Part shown: one piece after another, positions 13,524-34,958 of the stretch | Numbering within the stretch: the stretch's first letter is position 1 | Layout of the letters: the number at the start of each line of letters is the position of its first letter | NCBI GenBank assembly: GCA_039028615.1 | Contig: JBCCHT010000050.1 | Span: 1-64,000, forward strand | Length of the DNA: 64,000 bases | Source: Myxococcota bacterium | GTDB lineage: Bacteria > Myxococcota_A > Polyangia > Nannocystales > Nannocystaceae | Reading direction: 5' to 3' | Translations under genes and position numbers: made by a program | Notes under the pieces: generated by a model | What the model was told of the DNA's origin: nothing | Databases searched by the model: none | What the model saw: only the letters and a program-made list of their open reading frames with translations

Positions 13524-13532
13524 GCATTCGTC

Positions 13533-14951
13533 ATGCAACGACCCAGCCCCTCGCTCCCCCTGTCCACCCTCGGCCTGCTCATGGCCCTGGGCCTTCCCGC
13601 TTGTGGAGACGACTCCACCAACAACGATGACGGGGCCGCGACCGAAGGCGCCGCCACGACCACGGGCGACACCGATTCCGTGGTCGATGACACCGGCACC
13701 AGCGGAGGGTCGACCGCCGCGATCACCTACTGGGACGACGTCGCACCCGTTCTGTACCAGCGCTGCACGGGCTGCCACCAAGACGGGAGCATCGGGCCCT
13801 TCAACCTGCAGACCTACGAAGACGCGCAGACCTGGGGCGCGGCCATGGTCGCGGCCATGGAGGCCCGCACCATGCCGCCGTGGCTGGTCACCGACGACGG
13901 CAGCTGCGGCGAGTTCCGTGACTCGCGATGGATGCCCGACGAGGAAATCGCGCTCATCTCCGCCTGGGTGGACGATGGCGCGCCCGAGGGCGAGCCCCGC
14001 GACGACCTCGAGCTTCCCTCCTTCCCCGCGCTCGACAACCCCACCACGTTCGAGACGCCCAACTTCACGCCGGAGATCCAGGGCGGCGAGCTGGCCGAGT
14101 TCGACGAGTACCGCTGCTTCCTCGTCGACCCCGACCTGCCCGGCGATCGCTTCATGACCGGCTACGACGTGCTGCCCGGCAACGAGGCCATCGTGCACCA
14201 CGTGCTCGTGATGCCGGTCGACCCCGACCTCCAGGTCAACGGCACGCAGACCAACGCCGAGGTCATGCAGGCGCTGGACGACGAGTCTCCCGACCGGGCG
14301 GGCTGGCCCTGCTTCGGTGCTGCGGGCGACGGCGTCGACAACCGAGGCATCCCCGTGTCGTGGGCTCCGGGCCAGGGCGTGGTCAGCTACCCCGAAGGCA
14401 CCGGCCTGCGCATCGCACAGAACGAGCAGCTCGTCGTCCAGGTGCACTACAACCTGGTCGACCCGGCCACCCATGGGCAGAGCGACCAGAGCCAGATCCA
14501 GCTGCGGCTCGAGGAGTCGGTCGAGCGCGAGGGCATCATGCTGCTGCCCGACCCCTTCCTCGACTCGATCTTCGGCGACGACCCCATCACCCTGCCGCCC
14601 GGTGAAGAGTCGGTGGAGTACACCTGGGAGGTCCCGGCCCTGCTCGTGCTCGCCGAGCTCGGAATCCCCCAGATCGAGCTGCACGGCGTGTTCCCCCACA
14701 TGCACGAGTTCGGCACGGCCATGCGGCTGGACATCAACGGGGCCGACGACAGCGAGTGCGCGGCCGAGGTGACCGACTGGGACTTCGGCTGGCAGCTCCA
14801 GTACTTCTACGAAGAGCCGCGGGTCCTGACCGCCAGCGATTCCCTGCAGGTGACCTGCGAGTTCAACACCATGAGCGCGACCGAGCCGGTCACCCCCGGC
14901 TGGGGCACCAACAACGAGATGTGCCTGATGGGCGTGTACCTCGTGCCCTGA
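13533..14951 (+). CDS. Lipoprotein: c-type heme domain plus copper type II (PHM/DBM-like) monooxygenase domains
   Basis: Lipobox LPAC; CTGCH heme motif with MPPW; Cu ligands HH (IVHHVL), H (QVHY), HMH and EMC. Confidence 0.82.
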   Translation: MQRPSPSLPLSTLGLLMALGLPACGDDSTNNDDGAATEGAATTTGDTDSVVDDTGTSGGSTAAITYWDDVAPVLYQRCTGCHQDGSIGPFNLQTYEDAQTWGAAMVAAMEARTMPPWLVTDDGSCGEFRDSRWMPDEEIALISAWVDDGAPEGEPRDDLELPSFPALDNPTTFETPNFTPEIQGGELAEFDEYRCFLVDPDLPGDRFMTGYDVLPGNEAIVHHVLVMPVDPDLQVNGTQTNAEVMQALDDESPDRAGWPCFGAAGDGVDNRGIPVSWAPGQGVVSYPEGTGLRIAQNEQLVVQVHYNLVDPATHGQSDQSQIQLRLEESVEREGIMLLPDPFLDSIFGDDPITLPPGEESVEYTWEVPALLVLAELGIPQIELHGVFPHMHEFGTAMRLDINGADDSECAAEVTDWDFGWQLQYFYEEPRVLTASDSLQVTCEFNTMSATEPVTPGWGTNNEMCLMGVYLVP

Positions 14952-20770: not shown

Positions 20771-20913
20771 GCAGGTGCACCGATACAGGACGAGCCCGGC
20801 CAAGGGCAAGCCAGAGGGCCGCACACCGTGCGCTCCTAGACACACATTGTGACCGGCCCAGTGTGGGGCAATCGCACGGTCGTGCTCCCCTCGCCTCTCC
20901 GTGCCGTTTTACG

Positions 20914-23439
20914 ATGACCACGTCGATGGTGGGTTGGTTGCGATGGCTGATGGTGATCGCCATGCCGTGGTTGTTGTTCGCGTGCACTTCGGGCGACGAA
21001 CGACGCATCGATCGGTGGACCCTGCACGCCGACGAGCACGGCGCCCCCGTCGAGATCGAGCTGCCGCAACACGTCGACGAGTACCTGCCCGACGCCGACA
21101 CGCGCTACCGCTTGGTGGCAGACGTCGAGCTCGGCTCGCTTGCGGGCACCGAGCTCAGCCTCGTCATCCCCCACTTCGAAGGCATCGCCGAGCTGCACGT
21201 CGACGGACGCGACGCCGTGGCGACGCACCTCGGCCCCGGCGATCGCTACCGCCACGCGGGCCCGCACGTGTGGCGCCTGCCCGCGGTTAGCGAGCAGGCC
21301 GATCACGTCACGCTCGAGCTGCTCGTCGAGCATCGCTGGTCGCAGAGCGCGTGGCTCGACACCGTGCCCCGCCTGCGCCCCGCCGACGATCTCGGGCCGG
21401 CCGCGCTGACCGTGCTCGTGCTCAACCACGTCGGGGCGATCGCAGCCGCGTGCGGCTTGGTCTTGATCGGCCTGATGTCGATGGGCCTTCACCTCGCCAA
21501 CCCCTCGCGGCGTAGCTACCTGTGGTTTTCGATCCAGATGCTGTGCGCCGCCTGGTACCCGATTCACGTCTCCGGCTACGCCCAGCTGCTGGTCGGTCGC
21601 TACGAGACGGTGCTCATGATGCTGGCCCTCGAGCTCGCCGTGTTCGCGGCGCTCGAGTACAGCGTGGCCGAGTTCGGTCGAGGCCGCCCTCATCACACGC
21701 GGTGGTGGGCGATCGGCATCGGCATCGCGGCGCTCATCACCCTGGGCTCGGCCGATCCTTACTCCGTCACCGAGGTCGGAGGTCGAGCCGCGGTCGCGGC
21801 CATCGCCGCGGTGACCACCTTCTTGATCTTCTTGGGCATCGCCGCGCTGTCCGATGAAAACCCCCCGCGGGGCTCGGTGAACTTCTTGATCGAGTGGTGC
21901 GTGCTCGGAGCGGCCATCGTCCTCGATTCGATTCCCTGGCTGGGCCTGGGAGAACCGCTCGGCGGAGCGCGAGCTGCCTGCCTGGGCCTGGGTACGTTCG
22001 CCCTGTTCAACTCGCTCCGGCTGACGCGGGAGCACATCCACTCGCTGGGTACCACCGATCGCCTCAATCGCCAGCTCGAGCGGCGCGTCACCGCCCTCGA
22101 GGCGCAGCGCAACGAGGTCGAGCGCCTGCACGAGCAGCTCCGCGACCAGCTGGGCCATCGCTCTCGTCAGCTGTTCAGCATGCTGAGCATGGTCGGGCGC
22201 GATGCCGAGCCTACGCCCGTGCTCAACCCCGGAGACTCGGTCGGCGGCAAGTACCGCGTGATGCATCAGCTCGGCAAAGGCGGCATGGGGGTCGTGTACG
22301 CGGTACTCCGCCAGGCCGACGAGCAACGCCTCGCCCTGAAGATCGCCGTGCACGCCGATGCCTGGGGCCTGGCCCGGCTCGCCCGCGAAGCCGAGATCGC
22401 GACCCGCGTCGATCATCCCAATGTGGTCACCGTCACCGACGTCGACATCGACCCTCGGGGTTTCCTTTATATGGTCATGGAACACGTCGATGGCTCGACG
22501 CTCGCCGAGTACAAACCCGGCTTCGGGCGCGACCAACGATGGGCCATGGACGTGCTGCGGCAGGTCGCGGAGGGGCTCGCGGCGCTGCACGAAGAAGGCG
22601 TGGTCCATCGCGATCTCAAGCCGGGCAACATCCTGCTGCTGATGCGGCTCGACGGCGAGCTTCAGGTCAAGATCACCGATTTCGGCATCTCCCGCACGCT
22701 CGACGCCGACATGGCCGGGCCGCTCGATCCGCAGGACTCCACCGTCCACATGCCGATTCAGCCCGCCCCCGACACGCTCGAACCGGCGGCGCGGCGGCTG
22801 CTCGATGCTCAGATTCGCGGGGAGGCAGCCGAGCAGGCCCAAGCGCACGTCGAGCAGGCCCAAACGAGCGTCGATCCGCCCACCGTTCCCGGAATCAAAC
22901 CTCCCGCCACGCCCGCCGAACTCGCCGAGGAGAACACTCGACCGCTGCGGGTCGACGAGGTTCGCAACCTCGAGCTGTGGGAACGGAGTTCACCCATCAC
23001 CGAGGCGGGCACCATCATCGGAACGCCGGTCTACATGGCTCCCGAGCTCGCCGAAGACCCGCCCATCATCAGCCCGGCCGCGGACATCTTCAGTTTTGGC
23101 GTTCTCGCCCATATGCTCCTGACTGGCGCGCGTCCGTTCTCCGAGCCCCCGGTCATGGAGGTCGCCGACGGTCGCCCGCTGCCGCCCCGCCTCGACCTCG
23201 ATCTGTCGCGAATTCCCGAGGCGCTGCATGGCATCATGCGGTCCTGTCTGAGCTTCAAGACAGACGAGCGTCCCACTGCGGCCCGGCTGGCGATGGCGTT
23301 CGCCGAGCAACGTCGGGCGCTCGGAGAGCCGCCCGCCACGATGGCGCGCAACGAGCTGGAGGCCACGGGCGAGCACACGCTCGACGTCCCCGTCCGGCGT
23401 CGACACGAGCGCTCTCCGCCCGAGCCTCACGCCGCTTAA
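20914..23439 (+). CDS. Multi-pass membrane sensor Ser/Thr protein kinase
   Basis: Extracellular N-terminal domain, about 7 TM helices, coiled coil, then GKGGMG, ALK, HRDLKPGN, DFG, GTPVYMAPE. Confidence 0.88.
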   Translation: MTTSMVGWLRWLMVIAMPWLLFACTSGDERRIDRWTLHADEHGAPVEIELPQHVDEYLPDADTRYRLVADVELGSLAGTELSLVIPHFEGIAELHVDGRDAVATHLGPGDRYRHAGPHVWRLPAVSEQADHVTLELLVEHRWSQSAWLDTVPRLRPADDLGPAALTVLVLNHVGAIAAACGLVLIGLMSMGLHLANPSRRSYLWFSIQMLCAAWYPIHVSGYAQLLVGRYETVLMMLALELAVFAALEYSVAEFGRGRPHHTRWWAIGIGIAALITLGSADPYSVTEVGGRAAVAAIAAVTTFLIFLGIAALSDENPPRGSVNFLIEWCVLGAAIVLDSIPWLGLGEPLGGARAACLGLGTFALFNSLRLTREHIHSLGTTDRLNRQLERRVTALEAQRNEVERLHEQLRDQLGHRSRQLFSMLSMVGRDAEPTPVLNPGDSVGGKYRVMHQLGKGGMGVVYAVLRQADEQRLALKIAVHADAWGLARLAREAEIATRVDHPNVVTVTDVDIDPRGFLYMVMEHVDGSTLAEYKPGFGRDQRWAMDVLRQVAEGLAALHEEGVVHRDLKPGNILLLMRLDGELQVKITDFGISRTLDADMAGPLDPQDSTVHMPIQPAPDTLEPAARRLLDAQIRGEAAEQAQAHVEQAQTSVDPPTVPGIKPPATPAELAEENTRPLRVDEVRNLELWERSSPITEAGTIIGTPVYMAPELAEDPPIISPAADIFSFGVLAHMLLTGARPFSEPPVMEVADGRPLPPRLDLDLSRIPEALHGIMRSCLSFKTDERPTAARLAMAFAEQRRALGEPPATMARNELEATGEHTLDVPVRRRHERSPPEPHAA

Positions 23440-23739
23440 AATGAGAGAGTCGCTCTCCCATCGGGGAACCGCCGAAGCGCTACGCTCCGTACGACGTTCG
23501 TTCCCACGCGAACGATGATGGCTTCATCAGCGCTCGCCAAGGTCGGCTCTCGCGATCATGTCGATGACGTTGTTCCCCACGTCGGGGTCTCATTGACGTG
23601 ACATTCAGTGCAATGGACCGGTTCAGGACCATGCCGTATATCCGGGTTTCGAGTCCGAGTTGGAGGGTGTAGCCTACCCACCCCAAACACGAGCCGCCCC
23701 CGTGTTTGACCGTTCGAGAGCGTACGAGAGTTCTTGCCC

Positions 23740-25767
23740 ATGAGTCGCACGACGATTGCCGACAGTGAACGACCGCCCCTCGATCTCGCCGCGTCGAACG
23801 ACGCGAGCGCGGAAGAGTTCGTCGTCTCCCTGGTGCTGCGTGCCGGGGGCGAAGGCTCGGGCCTGCCCACCGCCAGCGAGATGGAAGAGCGCGCCCGGCA
23901 AGGGGCCGCGCCGCTGAGCTACGACGAGTTCACCCGCCAATACGGGGCCAGCGACGACGACGTCGCCAAGGTCCGCGACTTCGCCCAGGCGCACGGGCTG
24001 AGCGTGGGCACCGTCGATCGAACCAGCGCAGTGGTGGATGTCGCCGGCTCCGTCGACCGCCTCGCCAACGCGTTCAACGTCGACCTGAAAAAACTCGTCG
24101 GGGACAACGGCGAGTTCCTTCACCACACGTCCCCCGCCTCGGTGCCCTCCGAGCTCGCGGGAATCGTGGGCTTTGCCTTCGGGCTCTCCGGCCAGCCCAC
24201 ACAGCGCGGGCGGGCCTCGCTGCACCACCGACCGACCACCGACGACGACACCACCCCGCAGGCGACCCCGAGCTACACCACGTCGCGGCTGGCCGAGATC
24301 TACGACTTCCCGCCCCTGGACGGCAGCGGGCAGGTCGCGGGCATCATCGAACTCGCGGGCGGCTACCAGCTCAGCGACATCAAGGCCTACCTCGACGAGC
24401 TGGGCCTGCCGATGCCCACCATCGTCAACGTGGGGCCCAACGAGCGCTCGCAGGATTTCGTCTCGAACCTCGAGGTCACGATGGACCTGGCCATCGTCGC
24501 CTCGCTGGCGCCCAAGTCCACGGTCGTCGTCTACAACGCCAACTCCAAGGACTACTCGTTCAGCGACTACTACGAGATCTTCCGCACCGCGGTCTTCGAC
24601 CGCGTCAACAAGCCGAAGGTCCTGTCCAATAGCTGGTCGTGGCCGGAGGTCGAGGGCATCAAGCCCAACCCGGCCGAGCGCAAGCAGTTCGAGGAGCTGT
24701 TCATCAAGGCGGCCCTGCTCGGCATCACCATCTGCTCGTCCTCGGGCGACAGCGGCTCGCTCGTCACCAACCTCAAGGGTCGCATCCTCGCGCGCACCTC
24801 GTTCCCCGTCACCAGCCCCATGATCCTCGGCTGCGGCGGCACCACCCTGCTCGCCAAGGACGACGACGTCCACGAGACGGTGTGGAACTCCATGGCCGAG
24901 ACGCTCGTCATCGAGGAGAGCGAGGGCAGCCAAGGGTCCAACGCCAACGGCATGTCGACCGGCGGCGGGGTCAGCCGCGACGTCGCGCTCCCCCGCTTTC
25001 AGTCCGAGGCCCGCGTGCCGCCCCAGGTCACCCGCAAGTGGGTCGACGGCGTGCTGACGCCTCCGGTCACCTTCGCCGGCCGCGGCGTGCCCGACGTCGC
25101 CGCCAACGCCGACCTCAACACCGGCTACAAATACATCTACGAGGGCCAAGCGGTTACGGGCGGGGGTACCAGCGCCTCGGCTCCCCTATGGACGGGGCTG
25201 TTCACCCGCATCAACCAAGGCCTCGAGCGCCCCTGCGGCTACGTCACGCCGCTGCTGTACCACTTCCAGACCGAGGTGACCGACGGGCCCTCGGTGTTCC
25301 GCCCCATCGACCGCGGCAGCAATGGCGCCTACGAGGCCCACCCCGGCGATCGCTGGAACCCATGCACTGGCCTGGGCGTGCCCATCGGCACCCGGCTCTT
25401 GGCGGCCCTTCGCGAGCACCACGACGCTCACCCCATCCTCACGAGTTCCGATCCTTCAACCGACAATCAGACGACTTCGGAGAACACCACAATGTCAGAC
25501 GGTAAGGCCAAGCAAACTTTCACGTACCTCTCGGGCCACGACTGGGGCCGCATCATGGCGCACGCGTGGCGCGACGCAGACTTCAAGGCGAAGCTCGAAG
25601 CCGATCCCACCACCACCCTGCGTGCGTACATCTCCGAGACCTGGCCCGACCGCGAGTACACCAACCTGTTCCAGATCCACGACAAGCCCGCCGACATCGC
25701 CGAGGATCAGGTCCACCAGATGGCCGACTCGGACGGGCTCGCGTACCACTGCTCCGATCTTTGCTGA
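23740..25767 (+). CDS. S53 (sedolisin/kumamolisin) serine peptidase with pro-domain, in-frame fused to an NHLP-like RiPP precursor
   Basis: Pro-kumamolisin-like N-terminus; catalytic EVTMD (Glu/Asp), SSGDSG (oxyanion Asp), GRGVPDVA, GGTSASAP (Ser), WNPCTGLG; no stop codon before the precursor segment; no evident signal peptide. Confidence 0.88.
   Translation: MSRTTIADSERPPLDLAASNDASAEEFVVSLVLRAGGEGSGLPTASEMEERARQGAAPLSYDEFTRQYGASDDDVAKVRDFAQAHGLSVGTVDRTSAVVDVAGSVDRLANAFNVDLKKLVGDNGEFLHHTSPASVPSELAGIVGFAFGLSGQPTQRGRASLHHRPTTDDDTTPQATPSYTTSRLAEIYDFPPLDGSGQVAGIIELAGGYQLSDIKAYLDELGLPMPTIVNVGPNERSQDFVSNLEVTMDLAIVASLAPKSTVVVYNANSKDYSFSDYYEIFRTAVFDRVNKPKVLSNSWSWPEVEGIKPNPAERKQFEELFIKAALLGITICSSSGDSGSLVTNLKGRILARTSFPVTSPMILGCGGTTLLAKDDDVHETVWNSMAETLVIEESEGSQGSNANGMSTGGGVSRDVALPRFQSEARVPPQVTRKWVDGVLTPPVTFAGRGVPDVAANADLNTGYKYIYEGQAVTGGGTSASAPLWTGLFTRINQGLERPCGYVTPLLYHFQTEVTDGPSVFRPIDRGSNGAYEAHPGDRWNPCTGLGVPIGTRLLAALREHHDAHPILTSSDPSTDNQTTSENTTMSDGKAKQTFTYLSGHDWGRIMAHAWRDADFKAKLEADPTTTLRAYISETWPDREYTNLFQIHDKPADIAEDQVHQMADSDGLAYHCSDLC
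25492..25767 (+). CDS. NHLP-like RiPP precursor peptide (91 aa; nested in frame, own RBS)
   Basis: GGAGA at 25479-25483, 8 nt before ATG 25492; leader motif GRIMAHAWRDADFKAKLEADP; C-terminal Cys/Ser-containing core ...DGLAYHCSDLC; directly upstream of the YcaO gene. Confidence 0.8.
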   Translation: MSDGKAKQTFTYLSGHDWGRIMAHAWRDADFKAKLEADPTTTLRAYISETWPDREYTNLFQIHDKPADIAEDQVHQMADSDGLAYHCSDLC

Positions 25768-25894
25768 ACCCGAAAGGCCCCTCGACCGACCCGATGAGTC
25801 ACCCTGACGACGCCCCCTGGAACTCGGCACCGAGAGTTCCGCGGCGCAGCGCAGCGACGACGGTCGGTCGAGACCTTCTCGCTCGGGAGGCCCC

Positions 25895-28141
25895 GTGACG
25901 GCACGCCCTCGACTCAAGCGAAACCTTCGCTGCGTCGTCGTGCCCGACGGGGTCTTCCTGCTCTCGGAGGGAGAGCCGATCCACCTGCGCGGCCGGGCCC
26001 TGCCCGCCCTGGTGCCCCTGCTCGACGGTCGACACACCGAGGACGAGATCGTCGACGCCCTCGCCGGTCGGCTGCGGCCGGCCGAGGTCTTCTACTCGCT
26101 CGAGACCCTGCGCCGCGATCGACTCGTCGTCGACGAAGACGGTGCTGCGCTGGCCGAGGGAGCGTTTTGGGATGCACGCGACGTCCCCTCCGCCTCCGCG
26201 ACGCAGCGCGTTCGCGACGGGGCAGTGGCCCTCGTTCGTGTCGGTGACGCCCCCGGGCTGGAAGCGGCCGAGCAGGCCCTCCGCCACACGCTGACCAGCA
26301 ACGACGTCGCGCTTGCCGACGATGGCTCGCTGGTCGTCGTGCTCACCGATGACTTTCTCGACGAGCGGATCGCCGAGCAGTGGCAGACGCCGCGCCAGGT
26401 CCTGCTCGTGCGCCCGCTGGGTAACGAGCCCTGGCTGGGGCCGCTGTTCGTGCCCGAGCAGACCGGGTGCTGGCACTGCCTGACGCATCGACTCCGTGCG
26501 CACCGAAGGGTCGAGGCCTACGCCGAGCGTCATCGCAGCGGCGAGGGCCCCTCGGGCACCACGCCATGGTTGCCCTCCACCCTCGCGGTCGTGGCCGGGC
26601 TCGTGGCCACCGAGATCACGCAGTGGCTGGCCTGCGGCGAGAGCCCCTTGCTCGGCCGGGTGCAGACCCTCGATCTTCGCACCTTCGCCACGCAGTCCCA
26701 TGCGGTCGTGCGGCGCCCCCAGTGTCATCACTGCGGCGACGCCGAGCTCGTCGCTACCAAGCAACGCGCGCCGCTGGTGCTCGAGTCGCGGGCCAAGATC
26801 TTCACCAGCGACGGCGGCCATCGATCGTCCACGCCCGCGCAGACCGTCGCCGCGCTCGAGCATCACGTCAGCCCGATCACCGGCCTCATTCGCCGCCTGC
26901 GGAGCAACTGCCGCGACGAGTCGGCGCGCCTGGTGACCCCCTCGTACGTCACCGATCACAACTTCGCTCACCTCGACGACGACGGGGCCTTCTTGCGCCG
27001 CAGCTCGCGGAGCCGCTCGGGCGGCAAGGGCCGCGGCGACATGCAGGCCCGCGCCAGCGCCATCTGCGAGTCGATCGAGCGCTATAGCGGCGTGTTCCAG
27101 GGCGACGAGGCCCGACGCCGCGCCACCGTGGCCGAGCTGGGCGCGGACGCGATCGAGCCCAACCGCAGCATGCTCTTCAGCGAGCGCCAGCTCGACGCCT
27201 TCGACCCCAGCGCCGCCATGCCGCCGCGCTACCGCTGGGTCCCCGCCCGCTTCGATCCCACGCAGGCCATCGACTGGACCCCGGTGTGGTCGCTGACCCA
27301 TCGGACCCATCGCTACCTCCCGACCGCCCTGTGCTTCTTCGGCTACGCCCGAGCGCACGGCATCGACTTCGCGACCGCCGACTCCAACGGCTGCGCCGCG
27401 GGCCGAAGCGTCGAGGAGGCCATCGTGCAGGGCTTCCTCGAGCTGGTCGAGCGCGATGCCGTCGCGCTGTGGTGGTACAACCGCGCCTCGCGACCCACCG
27501 TCGAGCTGGGTGATTTTGGCGAGCCCTACCTCGAGCAGGTCCGCGACTACTACGCGACCATCGATCGCGAGCTGTGGGTCTTGGACATCACCAGCGACTT
27601 GGGCATCGCCACCTTCGCCGCCGTCTCTCGCCGGGTCGGGCACGAGCGCGAGGACATCACCCTGGGCTTCGGCTGCCACCTCGATCCTCGCATCGCGATC
27701 CTGCGGGCGGTGACCGAGCTCAACCAGATCCTGCCCGCGGTCTACGACGGCTCGCAGCGCCACGACCTCGACCCGAGCTTCGACCCCAACACCCTCGGGT
27801 GGTGGAAGACGGCGACGCTCGAAAACCAGTCCTACCTGCGCCCCGCCGCCAGCGCCCCCGCCCGGCGCCGCGCCGACTACGACGACCTCAGCACCGACGA
27901 CGTGCGCTCCGACATCGCCCGTTGTGTGGGCCTAGCCGCCGAACGCGGGTTGGAAACGTTGGTCCTCGACCAGAGCCGCCCCGATACGGGCCTGGCCGTG
28001 GTCAAGGTCATCGTGCCCGGCCTGCGCCATTTCTGGTCGCGCTTCGCCGCGGGACGCCTATTCGAGGTCCCGGTTACACTGGGCTGGCAGCCCCACGTGC
28101 TCACCGAGGACCAGCTCAACCCCCACTCGATGTATTTCTGA
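25895..28141 (+). CDS. Fused TOMM cyclodehydratase (leader-binding/E1-like domain + YcaO)
   Basis: GPLFVP, CWHC and PQCHHC motifs, DGGHR, SPITG, GKG...SAICESIERYS, SNGCAAG, ELVERD, RAVTELNQ, PGLRHFW. Confidence 0.93.
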   Translation: MTARPRLKRNLRCVVVPDGVFLLSEGEPIHLRGRALPALVPLLDGRHTEDEIVDALAGRLRPAEVFYSLETLRRDRLVVDEDGAALAEGAFWDARDVPSASATQRVRDGAVALVRVGDAPGLEAAEQALRHTLTSNDVALADDGSLVVVLTDDFLDERIAEQWQTPRQVLLVRPLGNEPWLGPLFVPEQTGCWHCLTHRLRAHRRVEAYAERHRSGEGPSGTTPWLPSTLAVVAGLVATEITQWLACGESPLLGRVQTLDLRTFATQSHAVVRRPQCHHCGDAELVATKQRAPLVLESRAKIFTSDGGHRSSTPAQTVAALEHHVSPITGLIRRLRSNCRDESARLVTPSYVTDHNFAHLDDDGAFLRRSSRSRSGGKGRGDMQARASAICESIERYSGVFQGDEARRRATVAELGADAIEPNRSMLFSERQLDAFDPSAAMPPRYRWVPARFDPTQAIDWTPVWSLTHRTHRYLPTALCFFGYARAHGIDFATADSNGCAAGRSVEEAIVQGFLELVERDAVALWWYNRASRPTVELGDFGEPYLEQVRDYYATIDRELWVLDITSDLGIATFAAVSRRVGHEREDITLGFGCHLDPRIAILRAVTELNQILPAVYDGSQRHDLDPSFDPNTLGWWKTATLENQSYLRPAASAPARRRADYDDLSTDDVRSDIARCVGLAAERGLETLVLDQSRPDTGLAVVKVIVPGLRHFWSRFAAGRLFEVPVTLGWQPHVLTEDQLNPHSMYF

Positions 28142-28151
28142 AGAGGGCTTC

Positions 28152-28867
28152 ATGCAACCGCAACCCCAACGCCCGGCTCCCTCGAACCCCGCAGCAGCCA
28201 TCGCCTCGCGCGATCGCTCCGAGCAGGTCGAGTTCTTTCGCGAGCAGGGGTTCTTGAAGCTCGACCAGCTCATCGACGCCGAAGAGGTGAAGCGCCTGGC
28301 CTCCATCTACGACGACATCGTCCGGGCGCACATGGGCTTTACCCCCGCGGAGATGAAGGACAAGGTCCGGCTCGAGGAGCGCCCCTTGTTGGTGGTCTAC
28401 CCCTCGAACGACGAGATCGCCCGCCTGCGCGAGGGCAACGTCTACGAGGCCGCCACTCAGCTGGTGGCGCAGCTGGTCGGGCTCGACCCCGACCGCATCG
28501 TCGGGGGCTGGCGCCTGTTCTTCAAGCCGCCCGCCTACGGGCCCTCCAAGTGGCACCAAGACGCAGCCTATCGCCCGCCGCCCCACGAGACGGTGAGCGT
28601 GTGGCTGCCCATCGACGATGCCACGCCCGAAAACAGCTGCATGACCTACCTCGGCGGGACGCACCACACCCGCAAGATCTGGCCGCACGAGTTCGAGGAC
28701 GACCACCTCATCGCCAAGGACTTCGACCCCACGGGCGCCGTGCAGTGCCCGATCCCGGCTGGCGGCGCCACCGTTCACCACAGCTGTACGCTGCATTGTT
28801 CTGGACCGAACCAAACGCAACGACCCCGGCGCACGCTGGGCATCGTGTGCAGGATGACGAAAAGCTC

Positions 28868-28871
<4 letters not shown>
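28152..28871 (+). CDS. PhyH-family Fe(II)/2-oxoglutarate dioxygenase
   Basis: FFREQGF, WHQD (HxD), SVWLPIDDATPENSC, TLHCSGPN...RR (distal His, 2OG-binding Arg). Confidence 0.9.
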
Positions 28872-34184
<5,313 letters not shown>

Positions 34185-34207
<23 letters not shown>

Positions 34208-34931
34208 GGCGGTGGGTGGCGAGGGTCAGCCACCACGCCATCCACCCGCCGAACACGTCGAGCAGGGCGTGCAAGAGGATGGGCAGCAGCAGGGACTCGG
34301 TCACCACGAAGATCGAGCCGAAGAACACCGAGAGCACGAAGATCTTCGCCATCGCCCGCCAGCCCTGGTAGCGGTGGATGGCGGCGAAGCCGAAAGCGGG
34401 CAGCAAGACCACCGCGACGAGGCCGGCCGGGCTGCTGCCCGTGAACACCAGCAAGTACGAGATGGCAAAGCCGCGGGCGATGATCTCCTCGGTCAGGCCG
34501 GCCGAGGCCCCGAACACGCTGAAGTGACGCGCCTCGCGGAGGGTAGCGGGAAGAAAGGGCACCTCTTTCCGTAGCCGTCCCAGGGTCTCGATGCGCTTGG
34601 CGGCCGTGCACGCCCCCCGCCAGGTCTCGAAGGCGATCCACCCCACGAACGCCGCGGCGATGGCCAGCCCCGTGCCGCGCTCGGCCTGCTGCCAGGTCAG
34701 GCCGAGCGACGCGAAGGAGCGGCCGGCCGAGGCCCAGACCGCACAGGTCGCCCCGGCCGCGGCCAGCATGATGGCGCCGTTGATCCAATAGATCGCCAGC
34801 TTGGCCTTGGTGTCGAACGACTCTTCGTGGCCGAGCGACTGGCCGCGGACCAGGTTGAACAGCGCGAACGCGCCGATGAGGCCGGCCAAGACGTGCTCTG
34901 CGAGGGTCGGATCGTCCATGCTCGACGTCAT
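34185..34931 (-). CDS. CPBP (Abi/CAAX) family intramembrane metalloprotease
   Basis: EEIIARG, FAAIH and HALLD motifs; multiple TM helices; start may be 34919. Confidence 0.88.
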
Positions 34932-34958
34932 GATAAAATTATGTTAAAAATTTTACCA
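34931..34958. promoter_or_regulatory. AT-rich inverted repeat, probable operator between divergent genes
   Basis: TGATAAAATT-N8-AATTTTACCA (one mismatch) filling the 28-bp gap between the CPBP gene and the HTH regulator. Confidence 0.65.

Follow-up and report, generated by a model that had tools for sequence, protein, structure and literature searches.

A single open reading frame (ORF) of a Myxococcota bacterium (family Nannocystaceae) encodes an S53 (sedolisin-type) protease joined in frame, through a short linker, to the precursor of a ribosomally synthesized peptide that is post-translationally modified (a RiPP). The gene occupies positions 23740..25767 of the forward strand of contig JBCCHT010000050.1 (assembly GCA_039028615.1), within the 64,000-nucleotide stretch that was analyzed (hereafter the window), and belongs to the large genome of a marine bacterium. 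Sequence comparisons indicate that the S53-precursor fusion is real and has been evolutionarily retained in frame, and homology and synteny identify its C-terminal 91 amino acids as a true YcaO/thiazole-oxazole-modified microcin (TOMM)-type precursor of the nitrile-hydratase-like leader peptide (NHLP) clan. The fusion seems to be undescribed and recurs in one distant relative. The explanation that we favor, with about an even chance of being right, is a compact azoline-type (TOMM/YcaO) RiPP operon in which the S53 enzyme is the pathway's leader peptidase, fused in frame N-terminal to its single NHLP-like precursor.

The initial annotation of this DNA described one unbroken ORF with S53 motifs followed by a precursor, and translation of 23740-25767 bears this out. 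EVTMD, SSGDSG, GGTSASAP and WNPCTGLG are all present, and the C-terminal end reads MSDGKAKQ...GRIMAHAWRDADFKAKLEADP...DGLAYHCSDLC*. The frame is uninterrupted over 23734..25767 (+); a TTG start would give 677 aa and the ATG at 23740, the likely start of the gene, gives 675 aa. The parts of the gene are:

23740..25767 (+), fusion gene, 675 aa in a single open frame: S53 pro-protease, linker and NHLP-like precursor
23740..24189 (+), pro-kumamolisin-type activation (pro) domain, residues 1-150 (Pfam PF09286)
24265..25437 (+), S53 catalytic domain, residues 176-566 (alignment to kumamolisin 1t1e/1gt9)
24472-24474 (+), E245, catalytic
24484-24486 (+), D249, catalytic
24748-24750 (+), D337, the oxyanion residue of the catalytic set
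25171-25173 (+), S478, catalytic
25438..25491 (+), linker, residues 567-584 (PILTSSDPSTDNQTTSENTT), low in GC at third codon positions (GC3) and disordered by prediction
25479..25483 (+), GGAGA Shine-Dalgarno-like motif 8 nt 5' of the internal ATG at 25492, aligning with GGGAGAGCACCATG of L013, a free-standing homologue
25492..25767 (+), NHLP-like precursor, 91 aa from the internal ATG, with a leader of approximately residues 1-82 (phmmer homology, synteny)
25738..25764 (+), predicted core LAYHCSDLC, with two Cys, one Ser and a C-terminal Cys (boundary inferred from the end of conservation)

Reality and age of the fusion

The protease part is complete. Pfam reports Pro-kuma_activ (PF09286; E 1.5e-12, 48.4 bits against a cut-off of 23.5) and Peptidase_S8 (E 4.7e-6, 26.6 bits against 21.8), and among solved structures pro-kumamolisin 1t1e is the best match (E 2.6e-77, residues 51-558). 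EVTMD, SSGDSGS and GGTSASAP align with the Glu/Asp (EVELD), oxyanion Asp (GDSGS) and Ser (GGT(S)) motifs of kumamolisin, and a comparison of 100 homologues shows no variation at E245 and S478 and almost none at D249 and D337. The features that define S53 enzymes, an activation domain N-terminal to the catalytic domain and a Ser-Glu-Asp triad with an oxyanion Asp, are therefore all in place, and from these residues the domain looks active. Only 10 open codons lie upstream of the ATG at 23740 and the N-terminus, read by eye from the sequence, has no hydrophobic stretch, so that a classical signal peptide is absent. Kumamolisins are secreted and acid-active. Pro-kumamolisin 1t1e and kumamolisin-As are the closest solved relatives, with pro-domain and catalytic residues that align, whereas the fusion protein differs from kumamolisins in that it lacks a signal sequence, carries a precursor domain at its C-terminus and lies in the context of a RiPP operon. 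The available text of PMC11294657 describes kumamolisins as collagenolytic proteases.

The window comes from a metagenome assembly and the codon usage of the linker is atypical, both of which would suit an assembly or sequencing artefact in which a stop codon or frameshift was missed in the linker. Two observations speak against this. A second assembly, a Logan contig of run X1 (10,891 bp, depth 20), spans 24900-26100 and is identical there at every letter, without a gap; since run X1 may be the source data, this is agreement of an independent assembly, not of independent reads. In addition, the protein P0057, from another assembly and 75% identical, has the same in-frame fusion. The artefact explanation is largely refuted, and we regard it as hardly credible.

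P0057 also bears on the age of the fusion. The S53 search covered 5.8 billion clustered proteins and gave 825 matches at E ≤ 1e-20, of which the best 120 are considered here. Among these, P0057 (678 aa, metagenomic) is the one other full-coverage protein (100% coverage) and shows the same domain arrangement. Its identity is 67% in the pro-domain, 79% in the catalytic domain, 61% in the linker (11/18, no gap) and 84.6% in the precursor (77/91), where the core is identical. A YcaO homologue (87% identical) shares its source and its contig size of 6,825 bp with P0057, and a PhyH homologue of 92% identity is from the same source type. As P0057 has diverged by 25% and is still fused, the fusion is old and has been kept in frame.

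The other S53 homologues among the best 120 of 825 are at most 44% identical. None of the C-terminal extensions of the other long ones (P0123, P0149, P0086 and locus L060 of G369) is NHLP-like; they consist of Arg-rich sequence, of a coiled region or of a further repeat that resembles the pro-domain. In P0123 and P0149 a second pro-kumamolisin-activation-like domain follows the catalytic domain, a pro-cat-pro order judged by eye.

Composition points to how the fusion arose. In sliding 15-codon windows the mean GC3 of the ORF is 0.91, and the minimum of 0.60 is reached at two places only, the 5' end of the gene and the linker/internal-ATG region (25423-25520); the initial annotation was thus right that the linker codons are less GC3-biased than their flanks. 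Listed S53 homologues without the fusion stop at approximately residue 560-566 of the fusion protein numbering. The linker is probably a former intergenic spacer. An S53 gene just upstream of a precursor gene would have lost its stop codon, and the spacer of ~54 nt would have become the 18-residue disordered linker. It had been proposed that the fusion reflects a recently lost stop codon or a sequencing error; a lost stop is likely as the origin, but at 75% identity to P0057 it is not recent, and no error is involved.

Precursor domain and internal start

An exhaustive phmmer search with the 91 aa against 1.84 billion representatives (E ≤ 1e-3) returned 56 proteins, including the fusion protein itself; the best free-standing match has an E of 1.7e-21. 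The remaining 55 homologues are nearly all free peptides of 64-140 aa, most with a C-terminal Cys, and none of the 55 is S53-fused. The family leader follows the pattern W-G-R-I-x-A-x-A-W-x-D-x-x-F-K-x-x-L-E-x-D-P-T, and a second motif, P-x-[RK]-P-x-D-[LM]-[ST]-D-E-Q-L, precedes a short variable C-terminus. The ending Y-x-C-[ST]-x-L-C-end is common to the fusion precursor, P0057, L013, P0002 and P0004. NHase_alpha matches the precursor domain with an E of 0.0057, and TIGR03793 reaches E ≤ 0.01 in 36/40 aligned family members (best 9.3e-8). P0009, P0013, P0030 and P0031 have tandem leaders or different N-terminal domains. In P0030 (288 aa), the NHLP-like leader, with a core that ends in ...CPPPACC, comes after a ~200-aa domain without a Pfam match.

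The domain has what is generally expected of a RiPP precursor: a small gene by a modifying enzyme, a conserved leader and a variable core with Cys/Ser/Thr. The earlier call of a YcaO/TOMM leader stands as far as the homology to 55 proteins and the YcaO synteny go, but the scores lie below the curated TIGR03793/TIGR03795 cut-offs (values below). Going by that curated rule, the precursor is a relative of the NHLP clan and not a member.

The available text of Haft, Basu and Mitchell 2010 (PMC2887384) describes NHLP/NHLP-Burk cores with Cys or Cys-Cys at their end and fused cyclodehydratase-docking proteins next to them. The likeness to the precursors given there extends to leader motif 1 (IMAHAWRDADFKAKLEADP here, compared with IKKAWSDEEFKQALLNN and IALAWHDPEFRDELLAD), to an acidic D/E-Q-L-type motif 2, to an adjoining fused E1-YcaO above curated cut-offs and, for NHLP-Burk, to a short core with a terminal Cys. 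The fusion locus differs from what that text describes in having no Gly-Gly motif and no C39-peptidase ATP-binding cassette (ABC) exporter, one peptide and not a tandem pair, the S53 fusion and sub-cut-off scores. Instead of the NHLP Gly-Gly cleavage motif, the leader ends ...ADSDG-LAYH. As for the tandem or fused pair of NHLP-Burk, the precursor is single copy (no second copy was found in the genome), and the C-terminal Cys is the one feature of that group that it shares.

The AlphaFold2 model (S53 alignment, with the precursor domain covered by two sequences only) has a mean predicted local distance difference test score (pLDDT) of 87 and a predicted template modeling score of 0.83. The pro-domain and catalytic domain (residues 1-150 and 176-566) are mostly >90, with the pro-domain above 87, the pro/catalytic linker (157-173) and the fusion linker (576-585) are <50, and the leader (~590-644, with three helices over 599-634) is at 63-84. 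On this model the precursor is a helical leader on a tether, with a core of low confidence that is probably floppy. Complex prediction of the S53 domain (residues 176-565) with the 91-aa precursor scored 0.00 in two runs, without controls, which speaks neither for nor against binding.

The leader part is helical and folded by prediction, and the domain falls below the RiPP family cut-offs. Both would also suit a C-terminal domain that is not a substrate at all but a helical module of the nitrile-hydratase-like type, with a role in regulating the protease or in tethering S53 to YcaO. We consider this very improbable. P0057 has exactly the same Cys-containing core and free homologues have almost the same one, and with no other precursor gene found in the genome the YcaO enzyme would have no substrate.

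The internal start is the second notable property of the gene. The initial annotation had seen a GGAGA 8 nt before the ATG at 25492, and this is confirmed; the motif also aligns with the start region of the free precursor gene of L013, in which cGGAGAACACCACAATG lies opposite gGGAGAGCACCATG, with the common pattern GGAGA[A/G]CACCA..ATG. Because it is homologous to the start region of a working free gene, the internal GGAGA is not a chance GGAG. QTTSENTTM, the nine residues encoding the start region, is identical in P0057, and its flanks differ. The 60 nt around 25492 have a folding energy of -4.3 to -4.8 kcal/mol, compared with an ORF mean of -17.3 (standard deviation 6.0), which places the region in the least-structured 2.4% of ORF windows, at a GC of 48%. 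Taken from these alignments, the internal ribosome-binding site and ATG are the retained start region of a once-separate precursor gene, and they have the traits of a live translation start. Given that the start region is low in GC3, nearly the least structured in the ORF and matched to the start of a free gene, a free 91-aa product is plausible. As the old GGAGA-N8-ATG survives within the ORF, the locus can give the 675-aa protease-precursor and probably also a free 91-aa peptide.

This raises the possibility that the fusion is real but incidental, with the free 91-aa peptide from the internal start as the working substrate and the tail on S53 a tolerated passenger of a lost stop. It would be in keeping with an ancestral start region that is intact, AT-rich and unstructured, with the rest of the family, which consists of free peptides and of proteins with different N-terminal extensions, and with the tolerance of extensions of 30-200 aa within the family (e.g., P0002, P0014 and P0030). 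On the other side, the linker frame has survived to 75% identity without an indel or stop, which would have been harmless if the free peptide alone mattered, a weak argument from one comparison. We treat the incidental fusion as a possible but less than probable account, and as the chief alternative to a functional protease-substrate pairing.

Cluster context and related loci

The fusion gene is followed on the same strand by genes for a cyclodehydratase, an oxygenase and a large signaling protein, and is preceded by a kinase gene:

25895..28141 (+), fused E1-like (RiPP recognition element (RRE)/wHTH) and YcaO cyclodehydratase, 748 aa (TIGR03604, TIGR03882, PF02624, PF21084)
28152..28871 (+), PhyH-family Fe(II)/2-oxoglutarate oxygenase, 239 aa (PF05721, E 1.8e-26)
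28868..34207 (+), Ser/Thr kinase-AAA_16-GAF-HisKA-HATPase signaling protein, 1,779 aa (Pfam)
20863..23439 (+), upstream membrane Ser/Thr kinase, 858 aa (Pkinase, E 1.1e-42)

The cyclodehydratase belongs to the TOMM family by curated cut-offs (TIGR03604, 261.8 bits against 219.25; TIGR03882, 156.3 against 36.9) and by its N-terminal wHTH/RRE (PF21084 wHTH, E 9.7e-6), with PF02624 at E 7.3e-100. The PhyH clade is small (27 proteins at E ≤ 1e-15), and several of its members share contig sizes with YcaO homologues (3,884, 11,484, 12,608 and 14,626 bp), which suggests that the oxygenase is a dedicated tailoring enzyme. No SagB-type dehydrogenase scored above the cut-off in the genome, where two sub-threshold matches lie on other contigs; given the lack of a dehydrogenase, azolines are expected, not azoles, and the rings probably stay thiazolines. 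Pfam scans of the genes called across the window found no exporter, ABC or C39 gene.

The ATG of the kinase-AAA_16 gene (28868) overlaps the TGA of the PhyH gene (28869-28871) as ATGA, suggesting that the regulator is translationally coupled to the biosynthetic genes. Related clusters are also flanked by STAND-type regulators. The upstream membrane kinase is an uncertain member of the cluster. Rce1-like/CPBP proteins are often bacteriocin immunity or processing factors, and one such CAAX/CPBP intramembrane protease gene (34185-34943 (-); PF02517, E 1.1e-13) lies in convergent orientation at the giant kinase gene's end. At 13524-14951 (+), a gene has both domains of a copper type II ascorbate-dependent monooxygenase (PHM/DBH-like), which is unusual in bacteria.

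A YcaO gene lies directly downstream of the precursor at the fusion locus and at L007, L008, L010-L014 and L054. In 5/6 genome-contig loci the start of an E1-YcaO homologue (41-44% identity) is no more than a few hundred bases downstream of the peptide, and the sixth locus stops at the contig end. L013, the closest free-standing relative, is informative. Its precursor matches residues 12-91 with 70% identity and starts from a GGAGG/GGAGA region of its own, with the YcaO gene after it, and a divergent upstream ORF aligns with the N-terminal end of the S53 pro-domain profile (hhalign 97.7%, E 1.8e-12, 77 columns). G344 encodes, on one strand, a kinase-AAA_16-TPR protein, the precursor, E1-YcaO, a ThcOx/nitroreductase dehydrogenase and an S53 protein (654 aa). 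S53 genes are thus found around homologous precursor/YcaO genes in three arrangements: fused, divergent and downstream.

Further leads come from proteins that share a source and contig size: precursor P0002 (53% identical), S53 P0085 and YcaO P0257 at 33,788 bp; precursor P0004 and S53 P0062 at 2,817 bp; S53 P0114 and YcaO P0181 at 4,451 bp; and S53 P0080 and PhyH P0301 at 40,455 bp. We estimate, roughly, that ~1 chance match is to be expected between two lists of 120, so these are circumstantial leads, not proof.

Other relatives form a distinct and conserved P450/halogenase subtype of the same precursor/E1-YcaO family (L007, L008, L010 and L012 fully scanned, L009 in its upstream part and L011 by tblastn). 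Pfam finds a P450 in 5/5 of L007-L010 and L012, FAD oxidoreductase/halogenase genes in 4/5 and a SagB-like dehydrogenase in both of the loci where that ORF was scanned. The order begins with a STAND regulator (cyclase-AAA_16 or kinase-TPR), the SagB-like dehydrogenase in two loci and the P450, and continues with 1-2 precursors, YcaO, a ~190-aa unknown protein, an FAD oxidoreductase and Trp-halogenase-like genes. It has the look of a family of azol(in)e peptides that are halogenated or cross-linked. Overall, the linkage of S53 to precursor/YcaO clusters is recurrent, not universal.

S53 may be no leader peptidase, but a general or regulatory protease that neighbors YcaO clusters while another enzyme removes the leader. 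Many clusters of the same family have no S53 gene, S53 paralogues occur without RiPP neighbors, and known S53 enzymes are given an acid pH optimum in the available text of PMC2635056. Set against these are the repeated occurrence of S53 genes, fused, divergent or downstream, around homologous precursor/YcaO genes, and the Pfam scans of the genes called over ~13.5-41 kb, which found no other protease or C39-ABC transporter except the Rce1-like protein on the opposite strand. On balance we think this account unlikely.

Proposed maturation and its implications

The reading that we favor, S53 as the leader peptidase of its own fused substrate, suggests a simple order of events. The helical leader would be bound by the E1-like/RRE domain of the YcaO enzyme, which would then cyclodehydrate the Cys, and perhaps the Ser, of the core LAYHCSDLC to azolines. 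A core residue may next be hydroxylated by the PhyH-type oxygenase. Finally, the S53 protease would remove its own pro-domain and then cut the leader off the modified core, in cis or in trans.

Enzyme-substrate fusions have precedents among RiPPs. Borosins (OphMA-type) are methyltransferase-precursor fusions and, as here, carry the core at the C-terminus of a pathway enzyme, so that enzyme and substrate are one polypeptide. They differ in that the fused enzyme modifies its own core and a separate protease releases it, whereas the S53 enzyme fused to the core is presumably the protease that releases it, and YcaO is separate; borosins are the nearest analogy in architecture, and in architecture alone. 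PatA/PatG and LanP, which are subtilisin-like (S8) RiPP proteases, are of the same clan (SB) and are likewise dedicated peptidases encoded in their clusters; in contrast to them, the S53 protein has a Ser-Glu-Asp triad, a pro-kumamolisin activation domain and a fused substrate. We know of no earlier case of a releasing protease fused to its substrate. The initial annotation knew of no S53-precursor fusion either, and in open-access papers and bioRxiv no connection of S53, sedolisin or kumamolisin to RiPPs or YcaO was found; co-mentions of kumamolisin/sedolisin and RiPPs there were incidental genome annotations (e.g., in the available text of PMC6423787). We also found no characterized product for the cluster family of NHLP-like Cys-ending peptide, E1-YcaO and small PhyH.

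Several observations weigh against S53 as the leader peptidase of a fused NHLP-like substrate. The precursor scores 17.1 bits for TIGR03793 (NHLP; cut-off 50.9) and 22.5 bits for TIGR03795 (NHLP-Burk; cut-off 41), and the core (residues 645-675) is modeled at a pLDDT of <50. Fused sequences number two only, none of the RNA runs holds the locus (runs X2 and X3 have short unrelated pieces only), and the contig-size matches are circumstantial. No S53 gene lies within the 6-kb flanks of the 6 genome-contig precursor/YcaO loci (0/6), and the P450/FAD/halogenase loci without an S53 gene indicate that S53 is not a universal pathway partner. The cluster is sporadic: among 73 genomes of the order the precursor occurs in one, the window's own, S53 has weak matches in 2/60 relatives, and in a phylum sample the precursor profile matched 28/401 genomes at E ≤ 0.001, with only G344 and G397 below 1e-9. 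The closest S53 paralogue in the genome (44% identity) has no RiPP neighbors. Finally, characterized sedolisins act at acid pH according to the available text of PMC2635056, and such activity fits a cytoplasmic leader peptidase poorly.

That paralogue (G000:C47, L006 8161-9933) is 590 aa long and has EVTMN where the fusion has EVTMD, so that the Asp of its triad is replaced. Its neighbors are DUF2804, an unknown 245-aa gene, RidA, an HTH-WYL regulator and an M16 peptidase.

A bolder reading is that the 675-aa protein is a self-contained single-turnover unit, in which the core is modified while tethered and the S53 domain, gated by its pro-domain, releases the thiazoline peptide in cis; S53 proteins would then be an unrecognized family of cytoplasmic RiPP leader peptidases. 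We offer this tentatively and do not expect it to hold in full. If it is true, each protease molecule would yield one product molecule, and the His/Asp/thiazoline-carboxylate product could be a metal-binding or signaling molecule and not an exported antibiotic. Such a product would fit the locus, as no exporter was found and kinases flank it.

RiPP mining and engineering assume short precursor genes beside their enzymes. Here the precursor is the C-terminal 13% of a 675-aa protease ORF, and tools that seek short precursor genes would miss such cases. The retained internal start offers a clean system for asking whether one ORF yields two functional products. If S53 is the leader peptidase, it would add a new protease family to RiPP maturation, one that combines a Ser-Glu-Asp triad and a pro-domain with the lack of a signal sequence. 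To our knowledge, this would be the first fusion of a releasing protease to its substrate, and a natural setting in which to compare leader removal in cis and in trans.

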